Below, one piece after another: positions 17,253 through 26,666 of a DNA stretch of 64,000 nucleotides. The stretch's first letter is position 1. Each line of letters begins with the position of its first letter. The translations under genes were made by a program, and so were the position numbers. This DNA is from Acutalibacteraceae bacterium (GTDB lineage: Bacteria > Bacillota > Clostridia > Oscillospirales > Acutalibacteraceae), in the NCBI GenBank assembly GCA_045595505.1, contig JAZOAO010000027.1, forward strand, positions 84,717 to 148,716, in the 5' to 3' direction. The notes under the pieces were generated by a model. It saw only the letters and a program-made list of their open reading frames with translations, was not told where the DNA came from and ran no database searches.

Positions 17253-19877
17253 ATGAGCAAGAAATTCGTTTATTTGTTCAAAGAGGGCGACGCTTCGATG
17301 CGTGAGCTTCTCGGTGGTAAGGGTGCAAACCTTGCAGAAATGACCAACATCGGTCTTCCTGTTCCTCAGGGTTTCACAATCACAACTGAAGCTTGTACTC
17401 AGTACTATGAGGACGGCAGAAAAATCAACGATGATATCCAGGCACAGATTATGGAATACATCGACAAAATGGAAGAAATTGTTGGCAAGAAATTCGGCGA
17501 CAAAGAAAATCCCCTTCTCGTTTCTGTTCGTTCAGGTGCTCGTGCATCAATGCCCGGTATGATGGATACAATCCTTAACCTTGGTCTTAACGAAGATGTT
17601 GTTGAAGTTATGGCTGCAAAGTCAGGCAACGCTCGTTGGGCTTGGGACTGCTACAGAAGATTTATTCAGATGTATTCTGACGTTGTTATGGAAGTTGGTA
17701 AGAAATACTTCGAGCAGCTTATCGATGAAATGAAAGAAGCTAAAGGCGTAACTCAGGATATCGAGCTTACTGCTGAAGACCTCAAAGAGCTTGCAGGTCA
17801 GTTCAAAGCTGAATACAAATCAAAAATCGGTAAGGACTTCCCCTCAGATCCCAAAGAACAGCTTATGGGCGCTGTTGAGGCTGTTTTCCGTTCATGGGAC
17901 AACCCCCGTGCAAACGTTTACCGTCGTGACAACGATATTCCTTATTCATGGGGTACTGCTGTTAACGTTCAGGCTATGGCATTCGGTAATATGGGTGATG
18001 ATTGCGGTACAGGTGTTGCTTTCACTCGTGACCCCGCTACAGGTGAAAAAGGCCTTATGGGTGAATTCCTTGTAAATGCACAGGGTGAAGACGTTGTTGC
18101 CGGTGTTCGTACTCCTATGCCCATCGCTGAGATGGCTGAAAAATTCCCCGAGGCATTCGCAGAGTTTACAAAGGTTTGCGCAATCCTCGAAGATCATTAT
18201 AGAGATATGCAGGATATGGAGTTCACTGTTGAAGCAGGCAAGCTCTATATGCTCCAGACAAGAAACGGTAAGAGAACTGCAAAAGCTGCTCTTAAAATCG
18301 CTTGCGACCTCGTTGACGAAGGTATGATCGATGAAAAGAAAGCTGTTGCAATGATCGATCCCAGAAACCTTGACACTCTTCTCCATCCCCAGTTTGATGC
18401 TAAAGCTCTTAAAGCTGCAACTCCTGCAGGTAAAGGTCTTGGCGCATCTCCCGGTGCTGCTTGCGGTAAAGTAGTATTTACTGCTGAAGATGCAGAGGCT
18501 TGGAATGCTCGTGGCGAAAAGGTTGTTCTTGTTCGTCTTGAAACATCTCCCGAAGATATCACAGGTATGAAAGCATCTCAGGGTATTCTTACAGTTCGTG
18601 GCGGTATGACATCTCACGCAGCTGTTGTTGCTCGTGGTATGGGTACTTGCTGTGTATCCGGCTGTGGCGATATCAAAATGGACGAGGAAAACAAGAAATT
18701 TGAACTCGCCGGTAAAACATATGTTGAAGGCGACTACATCTCAATCGACGGTTCTACAGGTAACATCTACGACGGCATCATCCCCACAGTTGACGCTGAA
18801 ATCGCAGGTGAATTCGGCAGAATTATGGATTGGGCTGATAAATACAGAACTCTTAAAGTTCGTACAAATGCTGATACTCCCGCTGATGCTAAAAAAGCTC
18901 GCGAGCTCGGTGCAGAAGGTATCGGTCTCTGCCGTACAGAGCATATGTTCTTCGAGGCAGAAAGAATTGCTGCATTCCGCGAAATGATCTGTGCAGACAC
19001 AGTTGAGGAAAGAGAAGCAGCTCTTGATAAGATTCTTCCTTATCAGCAGGGCGACTTCGAAGCTCTCTATGAAGCTCTTGAAGGCAACCCCGTTACAATC
19101 CGTTTCCTTGATCCTCCGCTTCATGAGTTTGTTCCCACTGAAGAAGCTGACATCAAGCTCCTTGCAGATGCACAGGGCAAATCCGTTGAAGATATCAAAG
19201 CTATCATCGCTTCTCTTCACGAGTTTAACCCTATGATGGGTCACCGTGGCTGCCGTCTTGCAGTTACTTACCCCGAAATTGCTGCAATGCAGACAAAGGC
19301 TGTAATCCGCGCAGCTATCAATGTTCAGAAAGCACACGCTGATTGGAATATCGTTCCCGAAATTATGATTCCTCTTGTTGGCGACGTTAAGGAACTCAAG
19401 TTCGTTAAGAAGGTTGTTGTTGAAACTGCTGATGCTGAAATCGCAGCTGCAGGTGCAGACCTTAAATACGAAGTTGGTACAATGATCGAAATCCCCAGAG
19501 CTTGTATCACAGCTGACGAAGTTGCTAAAGAAGCTGACTTCTTCTGCTTCGGTACAAACGACCTTACTCAGATGACATACGGCTTCAGCCGTGATGATGC
19601 CGGTAAGTTCCTTACAGCTTACTATGACAGCAAAATCTTCGAGAACGATCCCTTTGCAAAGCTCGACCAGAACGGCGTTGGCGCTCTTATGGAAATGGCT
19701 GTTGAAAAAGGTAAAGCAAGTGGTAAGAACCTCCACTACGGTATCTGTGGTGAGCACGGCGGCGACCCCGTTTCCGTTGAATTCTGCCACAAGATTGGCC
19801 TTAACTACGTTTCTTGCTCACCCTTCCGCGTTCCGATCGCTCGCCTCGCAGCAGCTCAGGCTGCCATCAAGGGATGA
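17253..19877 (+). CDS. ppdK: Pyruvate, phosphate dikinase
   Basis: 874 aa with the PPDK phospho-histidine region GILTVRGGMTSHAAVVARGMG and a C-terminal PEP-utilising TIM barrel (GIGLCRTEHMFF, FFCFGTNDLTQ). Confidence 0.97.
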   Translation: MSKKFVYLFKEGDASMRELLGGKGANLAEMTNIGLPVPQGFTITTEACTQYYEDGRKINDDIQAQIMEYIDKMEEIVGKKFGDKENPLLVSVRSGARASMPGMMDTILNLGLNEDVVEVMAAKSGNARWAWDCYRRFIQMYSDVVMEVGKKYFEQLIDEMKEAKGVTQDIELTAEDLKELAGQFKAEYKSKIGKDFPSDPKEQLMGAVEAVFRSWDNPRANVYRRDNDIPYSWGTAVNVQAMAFGNMGDDCGTGVAFTRDPATGEKGLMGEFLVNAQGEDVVAGVRTPMPIAEMAEKFPEAFAEFTKVCAILEDHYRDMQDMEFTVEAGKLYMLQTRNGKRTAKAALKIACDLVDEGMIDEKKAVAMIDPRNLDTLLHPQFDAKALKAATPAGKGLGASPGAACGKVVFTAEDAEAWNARGEKVVLVRLETSPEDITGMKASQGILTVRGGMTSHAAVVARGMGTCCVSGCGDIKMDEENKKFELAGKTYVEGDYISIDGSTGNIYDGIIPTVDAEIAGEFGRIMDWADKYRTLKVRTNADTPADAKKARELGAEGIGLCRTEHMFFEAERIAAFREMICADTVEEREAALDKILPYQQGDFEALYEALEGNPVTIRFLDPPLHEFVPTEEADIKLLADAQGKSVEDIKAIIASLHEFNPMMGHRGCRLAVTYPEIAAMQTKAVIRAAINVQKAHADWNIVPEIMIPLVGDVKELKFVKKVVVETADAEIAAAGADLKYEVGTMIEIPRACITADEVAKEADFFCFGTNDLTQMTYGFSRDDAGKFLTAYYDSKIFENDPFAKLDQNGVGALMEMAVEKGKASGKNLHYGICGEHGGDPVSVEFCHKIGLNYVSCSPFRVPIARLAAAQAAIKG

Positions 19878-19969
19878 AGGAATTAAGCTGAACCCCAGTA
19901 ATATCAAGGGTTTCGCGACTTCTCTTACAAAAGTTGTAGCTGTATAACAGCTATTAAACTAGCAATCAG

Positions 19970-20002
19970 CTCCCCGTATTCGAAAGAATATGGGGAGTTT
20001 TT
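19970..20002 (+). terminator. Intrinsic terminator of ppdK
   Basis: 12-bp stem ctccccgtattc / gaatatggggag with one G-U pair, a gaaa loop, then tttttg. Confidence 0.85.
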
Positions 20003-20170
20003 GTAACAAAATAATAGGACAATTATGTTAGTGAAATGTTTTTTGAAATTTAAAGAGTAATATATGTGATTTAAAAAAACACTTGTATTTAGACGAAAAT
20101 ATGATATAATATAGAAGGGATAATGGTTGAAGAATATAATATAATTGAATGAACAAACTATGTATGTAGG

Positions 20171-20199
20171 TTGACATTTTATATTATATATGATATTAT
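20171..20199 (+). promoter_or_regulatory. Strong sigma-A type promoter of the island xre gene
   Basis: TTGACA (20171-20176), a 17-nt spacer, then TATTAT (20194-20199), 34 nt upstream of the xre ATG. A second candidate, ttgtat-N17-tataat, lies about 90 nt further upstream. Confidence 0.6.
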
Positions 20200-20232
20200 G
20201 TTATCCCGTTAATTGAAAAGGAGGTTTTTTGT

Positions 20233-20553
20233 ATGTCAGCCGAGTTGAGACGATTAGGCTCTAATATTGAAAAAGCTTCACGAAGTAACTACAAGCAGAT
20301 TGAAGAATTTGCAAACGATACTAATTTGTCTGTGAGAGATGTTCACCGTCTTTTTGAAGGCAGATTGATATTATCCCCTTTACAGCTTAAAGTGATTTCT
20401 GAGAAAGTCAATACACCGTTAAAGGAATTGCTTGATATTTCAGGTGAATATACTCTTGTTGAGTGTATGGGTCGCTTTAAAGATGAAAAAAATGAAGACA
20501 AGATTCTTGATTTGATTGATAATTATATTGATCTAGTTGAAGCTGTTTTTTGA
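20233..20553 (+). CDS. XRE-family helix-turn-helix regulator (106 aa)
   Basis: LGSNIEKASRSNYKQIEEFANDTNLSVRDVHRLFEGRLILSPLQLKVISEKVNTPLKELL follows the HTH_XRE/Cro-C1 pattern. RBS aaaggagg is present. It lies directly upstream of an ImmA/IrrE gene. Confidence 0.75.
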   Translation: MSAELRRLGSNIEKASRSNYKQIEEFANDTNLSVRDVHRLFEGRLILSPLQLKVISEKVNTPLKELLDISGEYTLVECMGRFKDEKNEDKILDLIDNYIDLVEAVF

Positions 20554-20560
20554 TTTTAGA

Positions 20561-20590
20561 GGGCATTTACAGGTTGTAAATGCCCTTTTT
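20561..20590 (+). terminator. Intrinsic terminator/attenuator between xre and immA
   Basis: Perfect 11-bp stem gggcatttaca / tgtaaatgccc (20561-20571 / 20575-20585), a 3-nt loop, then tttttc. It ends only 22 nt before the immA ATG and no promoter lies in between. Confidence 0.8.
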
Positions 20591-20612
20591 CTATAGGGAG
20601 TGATTTCAAATA

Positions 20613-21461
20613 ATGGATACAGAAGAGAAGAGAAAATATTTTGATGAAATAATTATCGATGTAGTTGATGAATGTCGGAAAGAAAACGATATTGTTAATG
20701 TCGTAATTCGCGATGATGTTTTTAAAATTTTAGAAAGTCATTGCAAAGTGATTTATTATCCACTTGAGAATGAGGATATAAATGGATTCCATGTAACTAG
20801 AACGGTATGTGGTGAAAGTTGTCATTTCGTATTTATTAATACTTGGAATACGCTGGAACGCCAAGTGTTTACTGCTGCTCATGAACTTGGGCATATTTGG
20901 AATGCTTATTCTAAGATTAAAGTAAAATTTCCAGAAATAGACGAATATGTGAGAATTACTGTTGATGAAATAACCCAAGAACCTCCGGAGGAGTTTGTTT
21001 CAAATCAATTTGCAGCACAACTATTATTACCTAAAGAGCAGTTTATTAGTGCTGTAAACGAGGCATTGGAGAAGTTGGATTATAATGGAAAAACTATTTC
21101 TAAGATGAATATGCTTAGATTAATAGCTAGTTTAATGGATACTTTTTTAGTAGACTACAAAGCTGTTACCAAGAGACTTTGCGAGATTGGGCGACTTAAA
21201 CCAGAAGTATATACTATTGTTAAAAATTATGAGTATGAATCTGATTTTGAAGAAACTTTTGATAGTATATTAAAACAGGGTGGTCACAAACGTTTGAACA
21301 AACGTACAGAAAATAATAGAAACATTTCTCATTTAACAGATGTTATTAGACAAGCAGAAAAACAAGGGTGTGTTTTGTCTTCTACAATAGAGAATTTAAA
21401 AACTGAATTTGAGATAACAACAACCGAACCTTCAGACCAGGATAGTGTGGTTGTGTTCTAA
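20613..21461 (+). CDS. ImmA/IrrE-family (COG2856, M78) zinc metallopeptidase
   Basis: The HExxH motif occurs in FTAAHELGHIW. The downstream block EEFVSNQFAAQLLLPKEQF is characteristic of ImmA/IrrE peptidases. Confidence 0.85.
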   Translation: MDTEEKRKYFDEIIIDVVDECRKENDIVNVVIRDDVFKILESHCKVIYYPLENEDINGFHVTRTVCGESCHFVFINTWNTLERQVFTAAHELGHIWNAYSKIKVKFPEIDEYVRITVDEITQEPPEEFVSNQFAAQLLLPKEQFISAVNEALEKLDYNGKTISKMNMLRLIASLMDTFLVDYKAVTKRLCEIGRLKPEVYTIVKNYEYESDFEETFDSILKQGGHKRLNKRTENNRNISHLTDVIRQAEKQGCVLSSTIENLKTEFEITTTEPSDQDSVVVF

Positions 21462-22083
21462 GGATGTGGTACCAGTGGGGAAAGTAGTTGTCGATACTGA
21501 TTTTCTCAATCATATTTTAAAAACTACTAATGGTGAAGATGTGATGCAAAAAATCGTTGACTTTTATGGATACGAATTAGTGATGCATCCGTGGGTATAT
21601 GAAAGAGAAATTAAGAACATAAATACAACAGTTGAAGCCTATGTGCAAAAAAATGTTGTTGTATTAAATTACACAGACTTTCTGAAAACTGAGGAGGATG
21701 AAATGCTTTATGATATTGTGTTTCAAGATCTTCATCGGGAAATGAATCGCGGTAAAACTGTTGATGAAAGTTACAGGTCATTTAAGACATATAATAAATC
21801 GGGAATGAATCTTGGTGAAATCCACTCTGTAATTTTGTCTAGGTTTTCTGGAATACCCTTGTTGTTATCTGACGATCATAATGCTAAAGAAATTGCTGCT
21901 AAAAAAATTAATGCTGATGGATATGAATTGAATGTTGAAAAATCCTTTGATATAATGTGTGATATAGTCACAAAAGATAAAAGTATTTTGGAACTAGAAG
22001 ATATTATTTCAGTAATAAGAAATCATAAACAAGAATATCAGAAAAATTATATAAGACAAATAAAGGAACTATATAAAAATTAA
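21445..22083 (+). CDS. PIN-like (DUF4411-type) putative nuclease
   Basis: Acidic residues occur in PIN-like spacing (VVVDTDFLNH, HPWVYEREI, NLGEIHSV, LLLSDDHNAKE). It overlaps or abuts the end of immA. The start is ambiguous: GTG at 21445, 21466 or 21475, the last about 10 nt after aagga. The domain call is by eye only. Confidence 0.5.
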   Translation: MWLCSKDVVPVGKVVVDTDFLNHILKTTNGEDVMQKIVDFYGYELVMHPWVYEREIKNINTTVEAYVQKNVVVLNYTDFLKTEEDEMLYDIVFQDLHREMNRGKTVDESYRSFKTYNKSGMNLGEIHSVILSRFSGIPLLLSDDHNAKEIAAKKINADGYELNVEKSFDIMCDIVTKDKSILELEDIISVIRNHKQEYQKNYIRQIKELYKN

Positions 22084-22215
22084 ACAATTATTGGCGGCGG
22101 AGTTGTTATAGAGTACATAATAAGATAGTTGTTCTTTTGAATGTAAATGAAGGGGAACAAATTTAAATATAAATCTAAAAGACTTTTAAATTCAATTATT
22201 CAGGAGAGAGCGAAA

Positions 22216-22752
22216 ATGATATTATCAGATAAAACATTAACTAAAATGCTTGAAGAAAAAACACTTGTTGTTGAACCGATTGAAAAGGAACAGATTCAAC
22301 CTGCAAGTATAGATATAAGATTAGGAAATACTTTCAGTATCGTAGAAGATACATCAACGGGCATTATAAATTTAGAAAATGAAATTAAATACAAAACAAT
22401 AACAAGTGACTCATACATATTATTGCCTAACCAATTTGTGTTAGCAACTACTATGGAATATTTCGATTTACCTGATGATTTGACTGCTTTTGTTGAGGGC
22501 AGAAGTTCTCTTGGTAGAATGGGATTGTTTATTCAAAATGCAGGTTGGGTTGACCCTGGATTCAAAGGTGAAATCACACTTGAACTTTACAATGCTAATC
22601 GTTGTGCAATTGAACTTAAAGCAGGTAGGAGAGTAGGGCAGCTTGTATTTGCAAAAATGGATGATACAGCGCTTAACCCATATAATGGTAAGTATCAAGG
22701 TCAGCGTGGTGCAACAGGTTCAAGAGTGTTTATGGATAAGGAAATTAAGTAA
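22216..22752 (+). CDS. dcd: dCTP deaminase (Dcd/dUTPase-fold)
   Basis: MILSDKTL...PASIDIRLGN...FVEGRSSLGRMGLFIQNAGWVDPGFKGEITLELYN...GQLVF...YNGKYQGQRG aligns along its length with canonical Dcd. Start placed at ATG 22216 behind RBS aggagag; the track ORF starts at 22147. Confidence 0.9.
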   Translation: MILSDKTLTKMLEEKTLVVEPIEKEQIQPASIDIRLGNTFSIVEDTSTGIINLENEIKYKTITSDSYILLPNQFVLATTMEYFDLPDDLTAFVEGRSSLGRMGLFIQNAGWVDPGFKGEITLELYNANRCAIELKAGRRVGQLVFAKMDDTALNPYNGKYQGQRGATGSRVFMDKEIK

Positions 22753-22780
22753 ATAAATTCCTACATTTCCTCGTTGCTCC

Positions 22781-22807
22781 ACAGGCAGCTATCAAGGACT
22801 AATTCTT
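22781..22807 (+). repeat. 27-nt 3'-UTR repeat, copy 1 (acaggcagctatcaaggactaattctt)
   Basis: Identical to 26477..26503. Each copy begins about 25-30 nt after a stop codon that sits in the context aagtaa (the dcd stop and the nuclease-like gene stop). Confidence 0.9.
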
Positions 22808-22866
22808 AAACTATCAAGGTGCAAACCTGATTAGCACGTAAAGTGTAAAACTAAATATCAAATTGA

Positions 22867-22901
22867 GACTTCGTTGGAGAAATCCGGCGGAGTCTTTTTT
22901 T
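22867..22901 (+). terminator. Intrinsic terminator after dcd (member of a 3-copy hairpin family)
   Basis: 12-bp stem gacttcgttgga / tccggcggagtc with three G-U pairs, a gaaa loop and 7 T. The apical ttgga-gaaa-tcc is shared with the hairpins at 23295 and 26527. Confidence 0.8.
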
Positions 22902-22906
22902 GTACC

Positions 22907-23275
22907 TTTTTAGACTTACAAAATCGGCAATTGCTCAGGCGTTATTCCAAGCCCCACCCACGCCCACCACAAGCGTTCCAAGTGCCTTCGAGCATAACTC
23001 AGGTAAACATCCTGAAAGTTTCAATCCCAGTAGAATCAAGCGATTACCGAGGTGAGAACGGGTGTAAAAGGGTCGCTCCGAAATCCGAAAAAATGTCTTT
23101 GTGCAGGCGTAAAGCGAATGTGAACAACCGCAGATACCCCTGATAATCCAAGCCTTAACTCTGGCAGGCGTGAAAGTTATTTGGGACTTTTTTGAGATTG
23201 TTTTGGTCTTTGTCCGTTGATAATCAAATTCGCACTTTGGTTGATAAATTGAATTGCACTTGAATATTATTCGGA
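22907..23275 (+). ncRNA. GC-rich non-coding unit; candidate structured RNA or decayed cassette (function unknown)
   Basis: It is bracketed by two terminators. My hand count gives 116 G+C in 240 nt (48%) for 22921-23160, versus 25-33% in two 60-nt lines counted in the next cassette. Neither strand has an ORF with an RBS. Short direct repeats are present: caggcgt three times, ccaagcc twice, caagcg twice. The strand is assumed from the flanking terminators. Confidence 0.3.
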
Positions 23276-23294
23276 AAAGCAAATAACTAAATGA

Positions 23295-23326
23295 ATCCCC
23301 TTGGAGAAATCCAAGGGGATCTTTTG
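23295..23326 (+). terminator. Intrinsic terminator (hairpin family copy 2)
   Basis: Perfect 11-bp stem atccccttgga / tccaaggggat, a gaaa loop, then cttttg. Confidence 0.85.
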
Positions 23327-23328
23327 TG

Positions 23329-23440
23329 TATAGTCCTTTTCATTGTACAACCAATTGGCTTCGTTAGTTGATTTTTAGTGTTTTGATTTTGTATAATGGC
23401 GATACTTTATAAAATGAAAGGGTTGTTAATATGCAGAACG
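23329..23440 (+). repeat. Promoter/leader module copy A (TTGTACAA palindrome, -35/-10, RBS, first three codons MQN)
   Basis: I count 6 mismatches and no indel over about 110 nt against 25295..25406. Contents: ttgtacaa 23343-23350, ccaattgg 23351-23358, TTGATT 23368-23373, an 18-nt spacer, TATAAT 23392-23397, RBS aaaggg, ATG 23431. Confidence 0.9.
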
Positions 23441-24192
23441 AAAATTTACTTTTTTCGTTAAAAACAAACAATGAATATGCCTATGCTTTTTATATTTACG
23501 AAGATGGCGCTCTTGTGAGTATTAAAAATTCGACAATAAAAATATTCTCACTTAAACCGAGCACATTAAAGAAATTCCGCTCTCAAATAAAAAAGTCTCA
23601 AAAAAGACTGAACGATGTACCCCAACAGTTAATCGGATATAAAGACGGGCTTATACTTTTTGTAAGTGAGGTGTGTTTCGGAGATAAAATCTTTTTTATT
23701 GATTACACCATAAATGATGCTGAAACACCTAACGAAAACTACCGCTGTACAATAAAGGCGTGCTTGGATGCACTTTTCCTTTTAGGAAAATTAGAGCCGC
23801 TTGTAATTAACGATACTGGAATTTATATGCTTGACCATTCACAAGACATTCACATCCAAATACAAACCACACGCCAACAGATATTAAATGAAACAGATGT
23901 GTATGTAAAATATTCATTGATAACATTTTTGATGACAATACTTCATTGGAGTAACTACGAAATATATTATTTAACCAGCGGCACACTCCCCATTTCCAAA
24001 AATGATATTTATAGTTTCTGTTTACTTGATGACGTTGTTCAAGATTGTTCTTATGACTCTATGCCGTTTAATGATTTTATGAATTTATTAATGAAAATAA
24101 ACAAAACCGCAAAAGTAAAATATCAGCACGCGTTACATAGCTGGTCATTAGATGCTGTGCGAGATTGTATACTTGCAAACAAAACAATATAG
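23431..24192 (+). CDS. Hypothetical protein (253 aa), island cassette 1
   Basis: Clean ORF driven by module copy A. I recognise no family. Confidence 0.6.
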   Translation: MQNENLLFSLKTNNEYAYAFYIYEDGALVSIKNSTIKIFSLKPSTLKKFRSQIKKSQKRLNDVPQQLIGYKDGLILFVSEVCFGDKIFFIDYTINDAETPNENYRCTIKACLDALFLLGKLEPLVINDTGIYMLDHSQDIHIQIQTTRQQILNETDVYVKYSLITFLMTILHWSNYEIYYLTSGTLPISKNDIYSFCLLDDVVQDCSYDSMPFNDFMNLLMKINKTAKVKYQHALHSWSLDAVRDCILANKTI

Positions 24193-24208
24193 CATCTTGA
24201 TATAAAAA

Positions 24209-24251
24209 TCCCTTTTATTGTACAACAAAGAGGTTTCGTTAGTTGATTTTT
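24209..24251 (+). repeat. Partial copy of the module (tcccttttattgtacaac...tttcgttagttgattttt)
   Basis: It shares the palindrome ttgtacaa (24218-24225) and the -35-containing gttagttgattttt segment with copies A and C, then diverges. A possible -10, taaaat, lies at about 24266. Confidence 0.75.
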
Positions 24252-24352
24252 GAAAATCCGTTTGCTAAAATGAAGTGGGAATTATACTTTGTGACAAAAT
24301 TTTATATTTCGTAGTTGTTAATACGAATACAATTTTAAAACGGGGGAGCAAT

Positions 24353-25273
24353 ATGTGGAAGATTACAAGAAAGCTTAGTTTTGCGATAGTGGACGAGGAA
24401 GAGTTTACTGATTTTCAAGAAGCTAAAATTCAATTTCGTAATGCTATTAAAGATAGGGTAGGCAGACATTTACCCAAATTTATAAAACAAATTGAAGGAT
24501 ATTGTAAGAAATATTACCCTTTAGGACATCCAGATGAATTTGATTTGTTGAAAGATTTGCTTTGTAATATTGTTACTAATCCTGAATATCCTGAAAACCC
24601 AGAAGTTTTTAATTTTTTGCGTTTTGAAGATGATAATGTTGAATTCTATATGGATGAAACTACAAAGGAAATAGTTGTTAGAGCAAAAAAAGAAGAACTC
24701 TCAGGAGAATTCCCATATATTGAAATAAATTCGATATTACTTGATGACCCAAAAGGTGAATATTATTTCTTTTTTACAAACAAATATAGAAATGAATATA
24801 CTAATCATTACTCAACCGATATTACGTTATATTGTGATGAGTTGAAAAATGATGAGATTAATTCTGATAACGAAGACCTTGAAGATGAATCCGAGGAACT
24901 GTATTCTGATTTGGTGATAATTGAGTCTTCATATGTGTTAGGAATAAGTATAAAAAAAGAACGTTTGTTGACTAAAGAAGAAATAGAAAAATATAAAAAA
25001 GAAATACCGAGAGGGGATGTATATGACCGAAGAGAGAATCTTTATTTTCCAAATAAAGCAGATATGCCAAAAAGTGAATTTAGGGAAATAGGGGTTTTGT
25101 GTTATACAGATGGTAGGGATATCTATTCCCGTGTGGCTCTTGATATAGAAAATGCAGATAAAACAAATTTAGTGGTTGGTGACGAATTTCTTTATGAGAC
25201 TTGTTTTTTTACTTTAATAGATAAAAACTTAGCTGTTTCAACCGATTATGAATGTAATTTTGAATTTGAATGA
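24353..25273 (+). CDS. Hypothetical acidic protein (306 aa), island cassette 2
   Basis: Start placed at ATG 24353 (MWKITRKL) behind RBS gggggag; the track ORF starts at 24275. The protein is Asp/Glu-rich (DNEDLEDESEELYSD). No family recognised. Confidence 0.6.
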   Translation: MWKITRKLSFAIVDEEEFTDFQEAKIQFRNAIKDRVGRHLPKFIKQIEGYCKKYYPLGHPDEFDLLKDLLCNIVTNPEYPENPEVFNFLRFEDDNVEFYMDETTKEIVVRAKKEELSGEFPYIEINSILLDDPKGEYYFFFTNKYRNEYTNHYSTDITLYCDELKNDEINSDNEDLEDESEELYSDLVIIESSYVLGISIKKERLLTKEEIEKYKKEIPRGDVYDRRENLYFPNKADMPKSEFREIGVLCYTDGRDIYSRVALDIENADKTNLVVGDEFLYETCFFTLIDKNLAVSTDYECNFEFE

Positions 25274-25294
25274 TTTTTTGTCTGTATAGGTTTA

Positions 25295-25406
25295 TATAGT
25301 CCCTTTTATTGTACAACCAAGTGGCTTCGTTAGTTGATTTTTGGTGTTTCGATTTTGTATAATAGCGATACTTTATAAAATGAAAGGGTTGTTAATATGC
25401 AGAATA
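25295..25406 (+). repeat. Promoter/leader module copy C
   Basis: Same architecture as copy A at a constant offset of 1966 nt: ttgtacaa 25309-25316, TTGATT 25334-25339, TATAAT 25358-25363, ATG 25397 (MQN...). Confidence 0.9.
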
Positions 25407-25942
25407 AAAATTATGTTGATTTTTCCACCAATATTTCCCCCACTGATTTTACCCTTGAAATGTATAAAAACACAGCAGAGGACGGCACGTTATATCTTAA
25501 TAATTGGTACGATGTGGATTGTGAAGACTGTCAGACCTATAACAGCTTTGTGGCAAATATTAAATGGTCGGCAGAAGATGTTGAACATGCAATATGTGAA
25601 TATAACAAACTTTATAAGGAGTTAGACGTTATTGCAGACCACCTTGATGAATTAGATGGTACATCCGCAACAGCACAAGAAGTATTACCCGATGAATTAG
25701 TAGCAAGCTATTGTATTTTTGTTGCACCTTTTGAAGCAACAAAACAGCAAGAATTAAATGCTGAGGTTATTGGCAGAGTGTCAGACGGTCCTTGTGGGTA
25801 TGGATTAATCCGCCACGCTCAACGCTTGTGCCGTTTGTTATCCCTTAACGCACCAGAGTTAGTAGTTCAAAACGAAGCAAGAATGTTATTTGCAAGTCTT
25901 GCAATTCATTCTTTCGGCGAAAAAATAGAAAAGGTAGATTGA
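25397..25942 (+). CDS. Hypothetical protein (181 aa), island cassette 3
   Basis: Clean ORF behind module copy C. It shares only its first three codons with cassette 1. No family recognised. Confidence 0.6.
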   Translation: MQNKNYVDFSTNISPTDFTLEMYKNTAEDGTLYLNNWYDVDCEDCQTYNSFVANIKWSAEDVEHAICEYNKLYKELDVIADHLDELDGTSATAQEVLPDELVASYCIFVAPFEATKQQELNAEVIGRVSDGPCGYGLIRHAQRLCRLLSLNAPELVVQNEARMLFASLAIHSFGEKIEKVD

Positions 25943-26011
25943 GCAGTAAAATAATGACTTTTAAAAATTTGTTTGCTATGATGTATTATATTATTAAAAT
26001 GGGGTGTTGTT

Positions 26012-26452
26012 ATGGGTGAAAATCGATTAAAAACAAATCCTGCAGGTGCAGCAGGTGAAAGTTATGTTCTTGCAGAGCTGTTGCGTCGTGGATATACAGC
26101 ATCGACCTTGTATAATTGTGCAAAAGATTATGATTTGCTTGCATACCATCCAGATAAGGATAAATATCTAAAGATTCAAGTTAAGACGAGTCAATCAAAA
26201 AGTAAAATTTGGAAATTGGGCGACAAACCGCCTTACTATGATAATGAGACATTTTACGTTTTTGTAACAATGGTTGGCGAAGAAATGCCTGAGTATTATA
26301 TCGTAGATAGCAAAAAAGTTTACGAAGTAGCAGAAAAAAGACATAATACACCTACTCGAAGCGGAACTGCAAGAACTTCGGGTAGAAAGTTTAAATTTGA
26401 AAAAGACGAAGAAAAACAATATAAAGATTGGAATATATTGTTGAGTAAGTAA
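26012..26452 (+). CDS. Putative PD-(D/E)xK-fold nuclease (146 aa), island cassette 4
   Basis: The order GAAGESYVLAELLRRGY ... DYDLLAY ... LKIQVKT resembles the helix / D / (E/Q)xK core of restriction-endonuclease-like and Hjc-like proteins. RBS ggggtg is present. The call is by motif only. Confidence 0.45.
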   Translation: MGENRLKTNPAGAAGESYVLAELLRRGYTASTLYNCAKDYDLLAYHPDKDKYLKIQVKTSQSKSKIWKLGDKPPYYDNETFYVFVTMVGEEMPEYYIVDSKKVYEVAEKRHNTPTRSGTARTSGRKFKFEKDEEKQYKDWNILLSK

Positions 26453-26476
26453 TTTCCCCACTTTGCTAACTGCTGG

Positions 26477-26503
26477 ACAGGCAGCTATCAAGGACTAATT
26501 CTT
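26477..26503 (+). repeat. 27-nt 3'-UTR repeat, copy 2
   Basis: Identical to 22781..22807. Here it is followed directly by aaaagcaaataactaa plus a terminator. In copy 1 the same continuation appears only after 23275. Confidence 0.9.
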
Positions 26504-26526
26504 TTAAAAAAGCAAATAACTAACGA

Positions 26527-26556
26527 ATCCCCTTGGAGCAATCCGAGGGGATTTTC
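26527..26556 (+). terminator. Intrinsic terminator (hairpin family copy 3), right end of the island
   Basis: 11-bp stem atccccttgga / tccgaggggat with one G-U pair, a gcaa loop, then ttttc. Confidence 0.8.
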
Positions 26557-26666
26557 TATGTGCAGATATTGAAAACAAAACATCTTTATTGTATAATGTG
26601 TCATGAAAGAGGTTTCATAATTTTAATATTGTTTTTTGTCGCAATTAAAATATTTTAAACAACAAG

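Follow-up and report, generated by a model that had tools for sequence, protein, structure and literature searches.

A predicted mobile HTH/ImmA-type protease/PIN-like gene trio beside dcd in an Acutalibacteraceae bacterium

Described systems and the locus

ImmA-domain antitoxins occur together with diverse toxins, PIN-like proteins included, in the RosmerTA toxin-antitoxin (TA) systems, which have been validated as anti-phage systems (10.1101/2022.05.11.491447; PMC10440598), and PIN-like toxins are associated with the RmrA-type antitoxin class (PMC10440598). Three-component systems consisting of an Xre helix-turn-helix (HTH) protein, a COG2856/DUF955 protease and a PIN protein have been predicted before (Makarova 2009, PMC2701414; Matelska 2017, PMC5499597), and the PIN families involved are DUF4411, COG2405 and PIN_14/20/26 (PMC2701414; PMC5499597). 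Here, we analysed a 64,000-nucleotide (nt) stretch of contig JAZOAO010000027.1 of an Acutalibacteraceae bacterium, in which an XRE-like gene (xre, gene A), a gene for an ImmA/IrrE-type metalloprotease (immA, gene B) and a gene for a PIN-like protein (gene C) are followed by dcd, which encodes a dCTP deaminase. This whole stretch is called the window, and all positions refer to it unless a compared locus from another genome (L001, L002 and so on) is named. The original prediction for this DNA had proposed that an xre/immA switch is wired to a nuclease and to Dcd. A three-gene module of the cleavable-repressor/toxin type was retained from this proposal, and Dcd was lost as its second effector. 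Judging from sequence comparisons, we consider it likely that the locus has two separate origins, a mobile TA/defence trio (20171-22083; PDC-M69, Rosmer-like, with a split HTH) having entered a variable slot beside a housekeeping dcd.

The three window proteins match the three PDC-M69 models of PADLOC in the order A-B-C, the gene A match being weak, and we found no paper that mentions PDC-M69. With the predicted Xre/COG2856/PIN systems the trio shares its domain logic, an identical gene order and mobility, and it is a further example of this already predicted class. It differs from them in two respects: in the described systems HTH and protease are usually fused, and gene C falls outside DUF4411 and the Pfam PIN families. 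The RosmerTA system (RmrT toxin plus RmrA) is similar in that the M78 domain of gene B matches RmrA and that a small toxin-like gene lies next to it. However, RmrA is a fusion of HTH and ImmA/M78 in a two-gene system, whereas the HTH-like protein of the trio is encoded by a separate gene (106 amino acids, aa, in the window) in 7/7 lineages, which makes three genes, and gene C matches no RmrT model.

An XRE-type gene beside a gene for an M78 HEXXH protease, an arrangement that the trio would share if gene A is an XRE protein, is found in ImmR/ImmA (ICEBs1), DdrO/IrrE (Deinococcus) and CapH/CapP of the cyclic oligonucleotide-based antiphage signalling systems (CBASS). In contrast to these, the trio has no attached integrase, no genes of an integrative and conjugative element (ICE), no DNA-repair regulon and no CD-NTase operon, and its third partner is PIN-like. 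As for ImmR/ImmA, no integrase, excision, transfer or lytic gene is conserved beside the trio, and none is present in the window between 19.9 and 26.6 kb. As for CapH/CapP, gene B is followed by the PIN-like gene and dcd, and CBASS models matched 0/8 open reading frames (ORFs) of the island.

The window Dcd resembles the housekeeping enzymes (PDB 4xjc; E. coli 1xs1) over its full length, and only its neighbourhood is unusually variable in this clade. Mutants of E. coli lacking dcd require thymidine (PMC12184417), in keeping with the ordinary role of Dcd. The defensive dCTP deaminases (Tal 2022) and DcdV (Hsueh 2022) are described as Zn-dependent enzymes fused to other activities (PMC12184417); they have only the nominal reaction or substrate class in common with the window Dcd, and the fold differs. 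A comparison of a bare Dcd with a Dcd carrying an additional kinase domain, as drawn originally, is therefore misplaced.

The trio and dcd in other genomes

The features of the cassette and of dcd are as follows.

19997..22266, + strand: recently exchanged block, as suggested by the alignment with L003; comprises the three genes with their promoter and AT-rich leader, the 132-nt spacer and ~50 nt at the 5' end of dcd
20171..20199, + strand: sigma-70-type promoter of the cassette, TTGACA-17-(TG)ATATTAT, 11/12 match
20233..20553, + strand: gene A, 106-aa XRE-like protein, predicted repressor/antitoxin (PDC-M69A and HigA HTH profile match)
20613..21461, + strand: gene B, 282-aa ImmA/IrrE-type (M78) zinc metalloprotease (Pfam Peptidase_M78, PDC-M69B)
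21475..22083, + strand: gene C, ~202-aa PIN-like protein, predicted nuclease toxin/effector (PDC-M69C, AlphaFold model)
22084..22215, + strand: spacer between gene C and dcd, 132 nt, no convincing terminator
22216..22752, + strand: dcd, 178 aa, predicted resident dCTP deaminase; conserved right flank of the slot, outside the module (TIGR02274)

Genes A, B and C are adjacent and co-directional, and their order is that of the PDC-M69 models A, B and C, which they match. Their context elsewhere was obtained by looking up six divergent homologues of gene C by their exact protein sequences and from one viral contig, which gives seven other lineages. In 6/6 divergent lineages we found the same gene order and the same sizes (106-108 aa, 273-282 aa with M78 domain, 200-207 aa), and the neighbours were different each time. 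The trio lies next to IS1595 transposases in the first lineage and next to an IS3-like gene in the second. In the third (L086/L087, 7281-10773), its neighbours are a Gabija-like pair of an OLD-type TOPRIM protein (AAA_15-21) and a UvrD helicase as well as a DUF5677 protein, and this copy lies in a defence island. The fourth lineage carries it in a conjugative element with relaxase, NikA, ArdC and Toprim; a resolvase and amidoligase/GATase genes surround it in the fifth, and a sigma factor and an HTH_3 protein in the sixth. A distant trio (L095/L097, 3624-5561) was located on a viral contig of IMG/VR (32.6 kb), where a C5 cytosine methyltransferase gene and terS/terL flank it; it encodes an HTH-like protein, an ImmA of 289 aa and a relative of gene C of 196 aa (28% identity). 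dcd adjoined the trio in 0/7 of these other lineages.

The promoter proposed originally (TTGACA-17-TATTAT) was recovered at 20171-20199. It matched 11/12 positions, carries a TG extension and was the joint-best match in a promoter scan of 19.7-26.8 kb. TTGAC and the extended -10 element are kept at a fixed distance from the start codon of gene A in 7/7 aligned trio lineages, and in 4/6 other lineages a hairpin with a T-run follows directly 3' of gene C. Because of this conserved promoter and the terminator after gene C in 4/6 other lineages, the trio can be regarded as a promoter-to-terminator operon in its own right. Taken together, these comparisons demonstrate that the trio is mobile, has its own promoter and terminator, keeps its gene order and occurs in defence-island-type surroundings.

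In the window, a scan gave no terminator-like site between 20553 and 22484, and the fold z-score of the spacer was -0.26. No dcd promoter was detected by scanning the 132-nt spacer; the nearest candidate lies inside gene C (21928-21956). Since the window copy of the trio lacks a terminator of its own, read-through into dcd is likely and dcd is probably co-transcribed. This co-transcription looks incidental and not like functional wiring.

The separate histories of trio and dcd became visible when the window was aligned with L003, which was the only other genome with the order xre-immA-gene C-dcd among the best 80 dcd loci. The DNA identity was 100% for xre, 99.6% for immA, 99.3% for gene C and 97.7% for the spacer, but 91.1% for dcd, whose DNA differences were almost all synonymous (99% Dcd protein identity). 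Along the alignment, 23/167 nt were mismatched at 19830-19996, 17/2270 nt (~0.7%) at 19997-22266 and 56/526 nt (10.6%) at 22267-22792, which sets the breakpoints of the low-divergence block at ~19997 and ~22267. When dcd was compared with L002 (90.1% DNA identity) and L004 (90.3%), which carry other cargo, the divergence was the same as for L003. A low-divergence trio block between diverged flanks suggests that the trio was recently exchanged between lineages, whereas dcd diverged with its host. The alignment places one predicted crossover at the ppdK terminator and the other within dcd, at its 5' end.

The surroundings of the block in L003 differ from those in the window. An alpha/beta-hydrolase gene precedes it in place of ppdK (L003 1-1620), with a 48-nt remnant of the ppdK 3' end only, and the downstream genes differ, too (L003 4590-8100). 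This locus represents either a rearranged genome or a chimeric contig of a metagenome-assembled genome.

dcd itself has the properties of a resident gene. Its product reached 205 bits against TIGR02274 (equivalog cut-off 92.8), which agrees with the full-length Dcd proposed originally, and it matched Pfam DCD with 1.3e-49 and PDB 4xjc with E=7e-59. It is a single-domain protein of 178 aa with Pfam matches exclusively to the DCD/dUTPase superfamily, and the EGRSSxGRxG and VDPGFxGxITLE blocks are conserved in the Dcd alignment. No PADLOC model matched at E ≤ 0.1. For the dcd survey, which covered one genome per species, more than 541 relatives were available and the best 80 were examined. These 80 loci came from 80 different assemblies (one locus each, 80-99% identity) and span Acutalibacteraceae, Oscillospiraceae, Ruminococcus and Lachnospiraceae, with cultured isolates among them. 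In relatives at ~87% identity, dcd is located between thrS/RNase Y/YmdB and phosphoglycerate mutase (apgM)/a Cys-Met PLP enzyme.

The synteny of ppdK and dcd is kept in L002, L004, L007 and L066 with different cargo in between. L002 carries a GmrSD_N/NsnA-like gene and a 509-aa gene there, L004 has a small ORF together with RhuM (PDC-S05), and L007 has two ORFs of no known family. In L001, an identical Dcd protein is encoded behind a HATPase_c_4/winged-helix gene, and the DNA homology begins 32 nt before the start codon. When all ORFs of the best 80 dcd loci were searched with the hidden Markov models (HMMs) of the trio, only L003 matched, apart from one marginal gene A match in L007 (E=0.0068). 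A housekeeping dcd had been named originally as the outcome that would speak against a four-gene unit, and what we found is an equivalog with one locus per genome in the best 80 and with synteny to ppdK around other cargo. dcd is, as far as sequence can tell, the ordinary dCTP deaminase of this genome for dUMP/dTTP synthesis.

Proteins of the trio and alternative explanations

Four co-directional ORFs are present as originally listed, with dcd 132 nt past the third. For gene B, the assignment as an ImmA/IrrE protease with HELGH and FAAQLLLP was fully borne out. It matched Pfam Peptidase_M78 (E=2.5e-16) and the PADLOC models PDC-M69B (2.5e-33), CapP (6e-13) and RmrA (best 1.5e-11; 14 RmrA models matched); the match to the NCBIfam entry 'spr1629 family repressor/antitoxin' (2.8e-5) was under the family cut-off. 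HELGH, E126/E127 and FAAxLLxP (FAAQLLLP in the window) are invariant among the homologues. In addition, gene B carries a conserved C-terminal extension of ~90 aa, and it matches phage PHROGs annotated as 'transcriptional regulator' and 'metallo-protease'.

The longest ORF of gene C starts at GTG 21445 (21445-22083, 212 aa), and its homologues start at the position of GTG 21475, which gives 202 aa. Because of this start, gene C abuts immA (13 nt past its stop) and does not overlap it, so that one of the two arrangements considered originally was selected. PDC-M69C was matched with 2.5e-13. We counted 36 close homologues, most of which come from short contigs of metagenomes, and a full-library profile search yielded 275 representative clusters, all of them single-domain proteins of ~190-220 aa. 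For 92 family members, the window protein included, Pfam at E ≤ 0.01 gave no consistent family and no match to DUF4411 or PIN families. At E ≤ 0.1, gene C itself matched neither DUF4411 nor PIN, and only DUF6856 appeared below threshold (E=0.06). By these searches, gene C belongs to a sequence family outside Pfam coverage. No exact-sequence record was found for the 212-aa protein, and tblastn against phage and plasmid collections gave no match in either. Gene C alignment scans gave three metagenome loci and one viral locus, and a fold search in BFVD was uninformative.

The AlphaFold model of gene C (predicted local distance difference test, pLDDT, 93) shows five strands alternating with helices. 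Its best PDB folds in Foldseek were the PIN-type HARP protein-only RNase P (8kd9, 7og5, 8ssf), VapC15 and PAE0151, at E~5e-3 and template modelling (TM) scores of 0.44-0.46, with Rossmann-like TyrRS folds interleaved in the list. The acidic residues that had originally been called PIN-like could be substantiated, since D7, D9, E45, E115 and D134 are invariant or at least 90% conserved in 92 relatives (14-58% identity). This family-wide conservation fits a PIN-type acidic site, and it is reasonably likely that gene C encodes a PIN-like nuclease.

Gene A is always the first gene, and its orthologues are 55-75% identical across the six other lineages. The PADLOC match to PDC-M69A was weak (E=5e-4), and a seven-orthologue profile matched the HTH of the antitoxin HigA in the PDB (2icp, E=0.016, residues 9-77). 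A Pfam scan of gene A gave no HTH match. The 106-aa ORF proposed originally is thus present, and its HTH assignment rests on the PDC-M69A and HigA matches. The single-sequence model (pLDDT 55) was too poor for a fold search and contained five short helices in residues 3-70. The C-terminal tail is invariant (VECMG..NEDK..IDNYIDL.E). To sum up the HMM searches suggested originally, those for M78 and Dcd were positive and those in Pfam for an HTH in gene A and for PIN/DUF4411 in gene C were negative; the suggested PADLOC check identified the trio as PDC-M69 A, B and C and gave no match for dcd.

We infer repression, cleavage, toxicity and the biological role of the trio by analogy with ImmR/ImmA, DdrO/IrrE, CapH/CapP, the Xre + COG2856 + PIN systems and RosmerTA. 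Gene A would repress the operon and/or neutralise gene C. A stress or infection signal would activate the protease encoded by gene B, which would then cut the conserved C-terminal region of the gene A protein. Freed or over-expressed in this way, the PIN-like nuclease may arrest the cell, with abortive infection or addiction as possible outcomes.

Several points weigh against two separate origins and against this assignment of roles. For gene A, the evidence for an XRE protein is marginal. The PIN assignment of gene C is weak on score, and its profile gave no significant match to PDB sequences (best, Fcf1 PIN, E=0.56). No operator was recognised in the seven-lineage promoter alignment. The antitoxin of RosmerTA is the protease-bearing protein itself, and the PDC-x systems of PADLOC are unpublished candidates (PMC11811056). 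For the source genome, the dcd copy count covers the 64-kb window, in which there is no second copy. Even very close species (L002-L019, 89-99% protein identity) have almost entirely different genes around dcd, among them those for ribosomal protein L10, Fic/DOC, a metallophosphoesterase and an AAA_15/21 protein; the thrS...apgM surroundings are stable in more distant relatives. Moreover, since remnants of the ppdK 3' end bracket dcd, the gene may itself have been relocated long ago, which does not affect the separate histories of trio and dcd.

As an alternative, the trio might derive from a mobile element or prophage, as an ImmR/ImmA-type immunity switch that was left behind or is portable; genes A and B would then regulate genes of the element, and gene C would be one of its accessory genes and not a toxin. 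ImmR-ImmA-Int is the model operon of this protease family (PMC10440598; PMC2701414), and the copies in a conjugative element and in a viral contig as well as the phage PHROG matches of gene B would fit such an origin. However, the trio has its own promoter and terminator, and gene C is kept in every lineage while the neighbours change. Its surroundings contain no conserved integrase, excisionase or divergent lytic/transfer promoter, the window trio stands alone between housekeeping genes, and the acidic constellation of gene C is of the nuclease and not of the recombinase type. We therefore regard an immunity switch as rather unlikely.

Alternatively, the trio could be a selfish addiction module (post-segregational killing) that has no role in phage defence and persists because it is hard to lose. 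Its mobile, patchy and TA-like distribution, with 36 close homologues and locations beside insertion sequence (IS) elements and on an ICE, is what such a module would show, although addiction and defence are alike at the sequence level. The Gabija-like neighbours and the GmrSD-like and RhuM genes that occupy the slot in sister species favour a defence-island context, and the ImmA-type TA systems tested so far defended against phage (10.1101/2022.05.11.491447; PMC10440598). Pure addiction appears improbable to us.

It is very doubtful that in the window and in L003 the loss of the terminator was selected and dcd was recruited under the strong, presumably derepressible promoter of the trio. If this were true, the protease switch would raise Dcd together with the PIN-like nuclease and would shift dCTP towards dUTP during infection, and a defence cassette would have opportunistically recruited a core metabolic gene.

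A defence operon of four genes, with the PIN-like nuclease and a dCTP-depleting Dcd both under the XRE/ImmA switch, is hardly tenable. In its favour, a strong promoter and a terminator enclose the four genes, which all point in one direction, no terminator separates gene C from dcd, the terminator found after gene C in other trio lineages is missing from the window copy, and L003 has the same four-gene order, but dcd accompanies the trio in 0/7 other lineages and the trio occurs at 1/80 dcd loci, divergence is discontinuous between trio and dcd in L003, dcd is equivalog-level, single-locus and syntenic with no PADLOC match, and the known defensive dCTP deaminases are Zn-dependent, fused and of another fold (PMC12184417).

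The ppdK-dcd interval and what it means

The housekeeping backbone upstream of the AT-rich stretch consists of recA, recX, cysS, yhbY and ppdK, and an MFS transporter gene lies downstream. The remaining features of the interval are listed here.

19970..20003, + strand: ppdK terminator hairpin, CTCCCCGTATTC-GAAA-GAATATGGGGAG plus T-run, read from the sequence; conserved left flank of the variable slot
22770..22802, + strand: remnant of the ppdK 3' end (..LVAPQAAIKD and stop) directly after dcd; second copy at 26466-26498
22865..22903, + strand: terminator hairpin (22865-22896, 14 pairs) plus T-run from the terminator scan, ends transcription from dcd

Between 19.9 and 26.6 kb the GC content is 0.27-0.35, compared with 0.43-0.48 for ppdK. 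The originally described island between the ppdK terminator and the MFS gene is indeed AT-rich, and it is not a single island, since the stretch is a composite of the trio, the conserved dcd and four further ORFs without known function (23431-26452). Similarly, a hairpin with a T-run is present where a terminator had been proposed to close the unit, and the segment holding it is a separate one, whose orthologue in L002 follows ppdK immediately. The proposed lack of an integrase and of phage structural proteins was confirmed by Pfam, PHROG and PADLOC scans of eight ORFs (20.2-26.5 kb). A tRNA as integration target was dropped, because the window contains none. Rfam at gathering thresholds gave zero matches across the whole window, and a permissive scan of 22740-23440 gave sub-threshold, chance-level matches only.

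The segment 19955-20004 is kept in L002 (96%), L004 and L007. Sequence comparison identifies the stretch from the ppdK terminator to dcd as a variable slot, in which accessory/defence genes appear to be swapped by recombination in the conserved flanks. An exact 21-mer is repeated at 22782 and 26478. The remnants at 22770-22802 and 26466-26498 represent a diverged copy of the ppdK 3' end and align to the genuine ppdK 3' end of L002, where this end (..AAQAAIKD and stop) is followed by the orthologue of window 22808-23274. In L004 (3033-3185), the cargo is preceded by 153 nt that duplicate the ppdK 3' end together with its terminator. Copies of the last 30-50 nt of ppdK (..QAAIKD and stop, or ..QAAIKG and stop) bracket cassettes in the window, in L004, in L007 (8068-8088 and 11731-11751) and in L003 (1622-1670). 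Since these copies bracket cassettes and no integrase is nearby, successive rounds of insertion or recombination at this end of ppdK are suggested. We also considered dcd as a mobile single-gene cassette, given that DNA homology is confined to the ORF +/-30 nt and that ppdK 3' remnants are present. This would fit an old relocation of dcd, but not membership of dcd in the trio, given the divergence break.

Some further observations concern the part of the stretch behind dcd. The segment 22808-23274 (467 nt, noncoding, relatively GC-rich at ~0.42) is ~82% identical to L002 481-937, immediately downstream of ppdK. The terminator 22865-22896 lies within it, its Rfam matches did not rise above noise, and none of its ORFs is conserved. 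Positions 22745-22807 and 23275-23329, which the 467-nt segment separates, together correspond to a 121-nt unit at 26441-26561. Leaders of 44-118 nt that are up to 93% identical repeat at 23329-23446, 24209-24252 and 25295-25412 in front of ORFs of 253, 332 and 181 aa. A promoter-like site, TTGATT-18-TATAAT, is part of the repeated leader, and in two of the three cases the first codons (MQN) of the ORF belong to it as well. These three ORFs had no Pfam match, no PADLOC match and no homologues in the compared loci. The last gene of the AT-rich stretch is a 146-aa ORF (26012-26452), which matched PDDEXK_5 just below the cut-off (E=1.5e-5) and phrog_29029 (1.2e-13). Hairpins with the loop motif TTGGAG(A/C)AATCC follow each cassette (23290-23329 and 26522-26561) and occur also at 22874-22898.

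With the trio read as a mobile cassette beside a core gene, the locus is a cautionary case, since a shared promoter and terminator in an AT-rich stretch mimicked a new system that comparative context resolved into these two parts. The trio is a compact promoter-to-terminator example of the split HTH/ImmA protease/PIN-like class and could help to show how ImmA-type proteases gate a toxin. The ppdK-dcd interval, as judged from the loci compared here, appears as a hotspot of cargo exchange in ruminant-gut Acutalibacteraceae.

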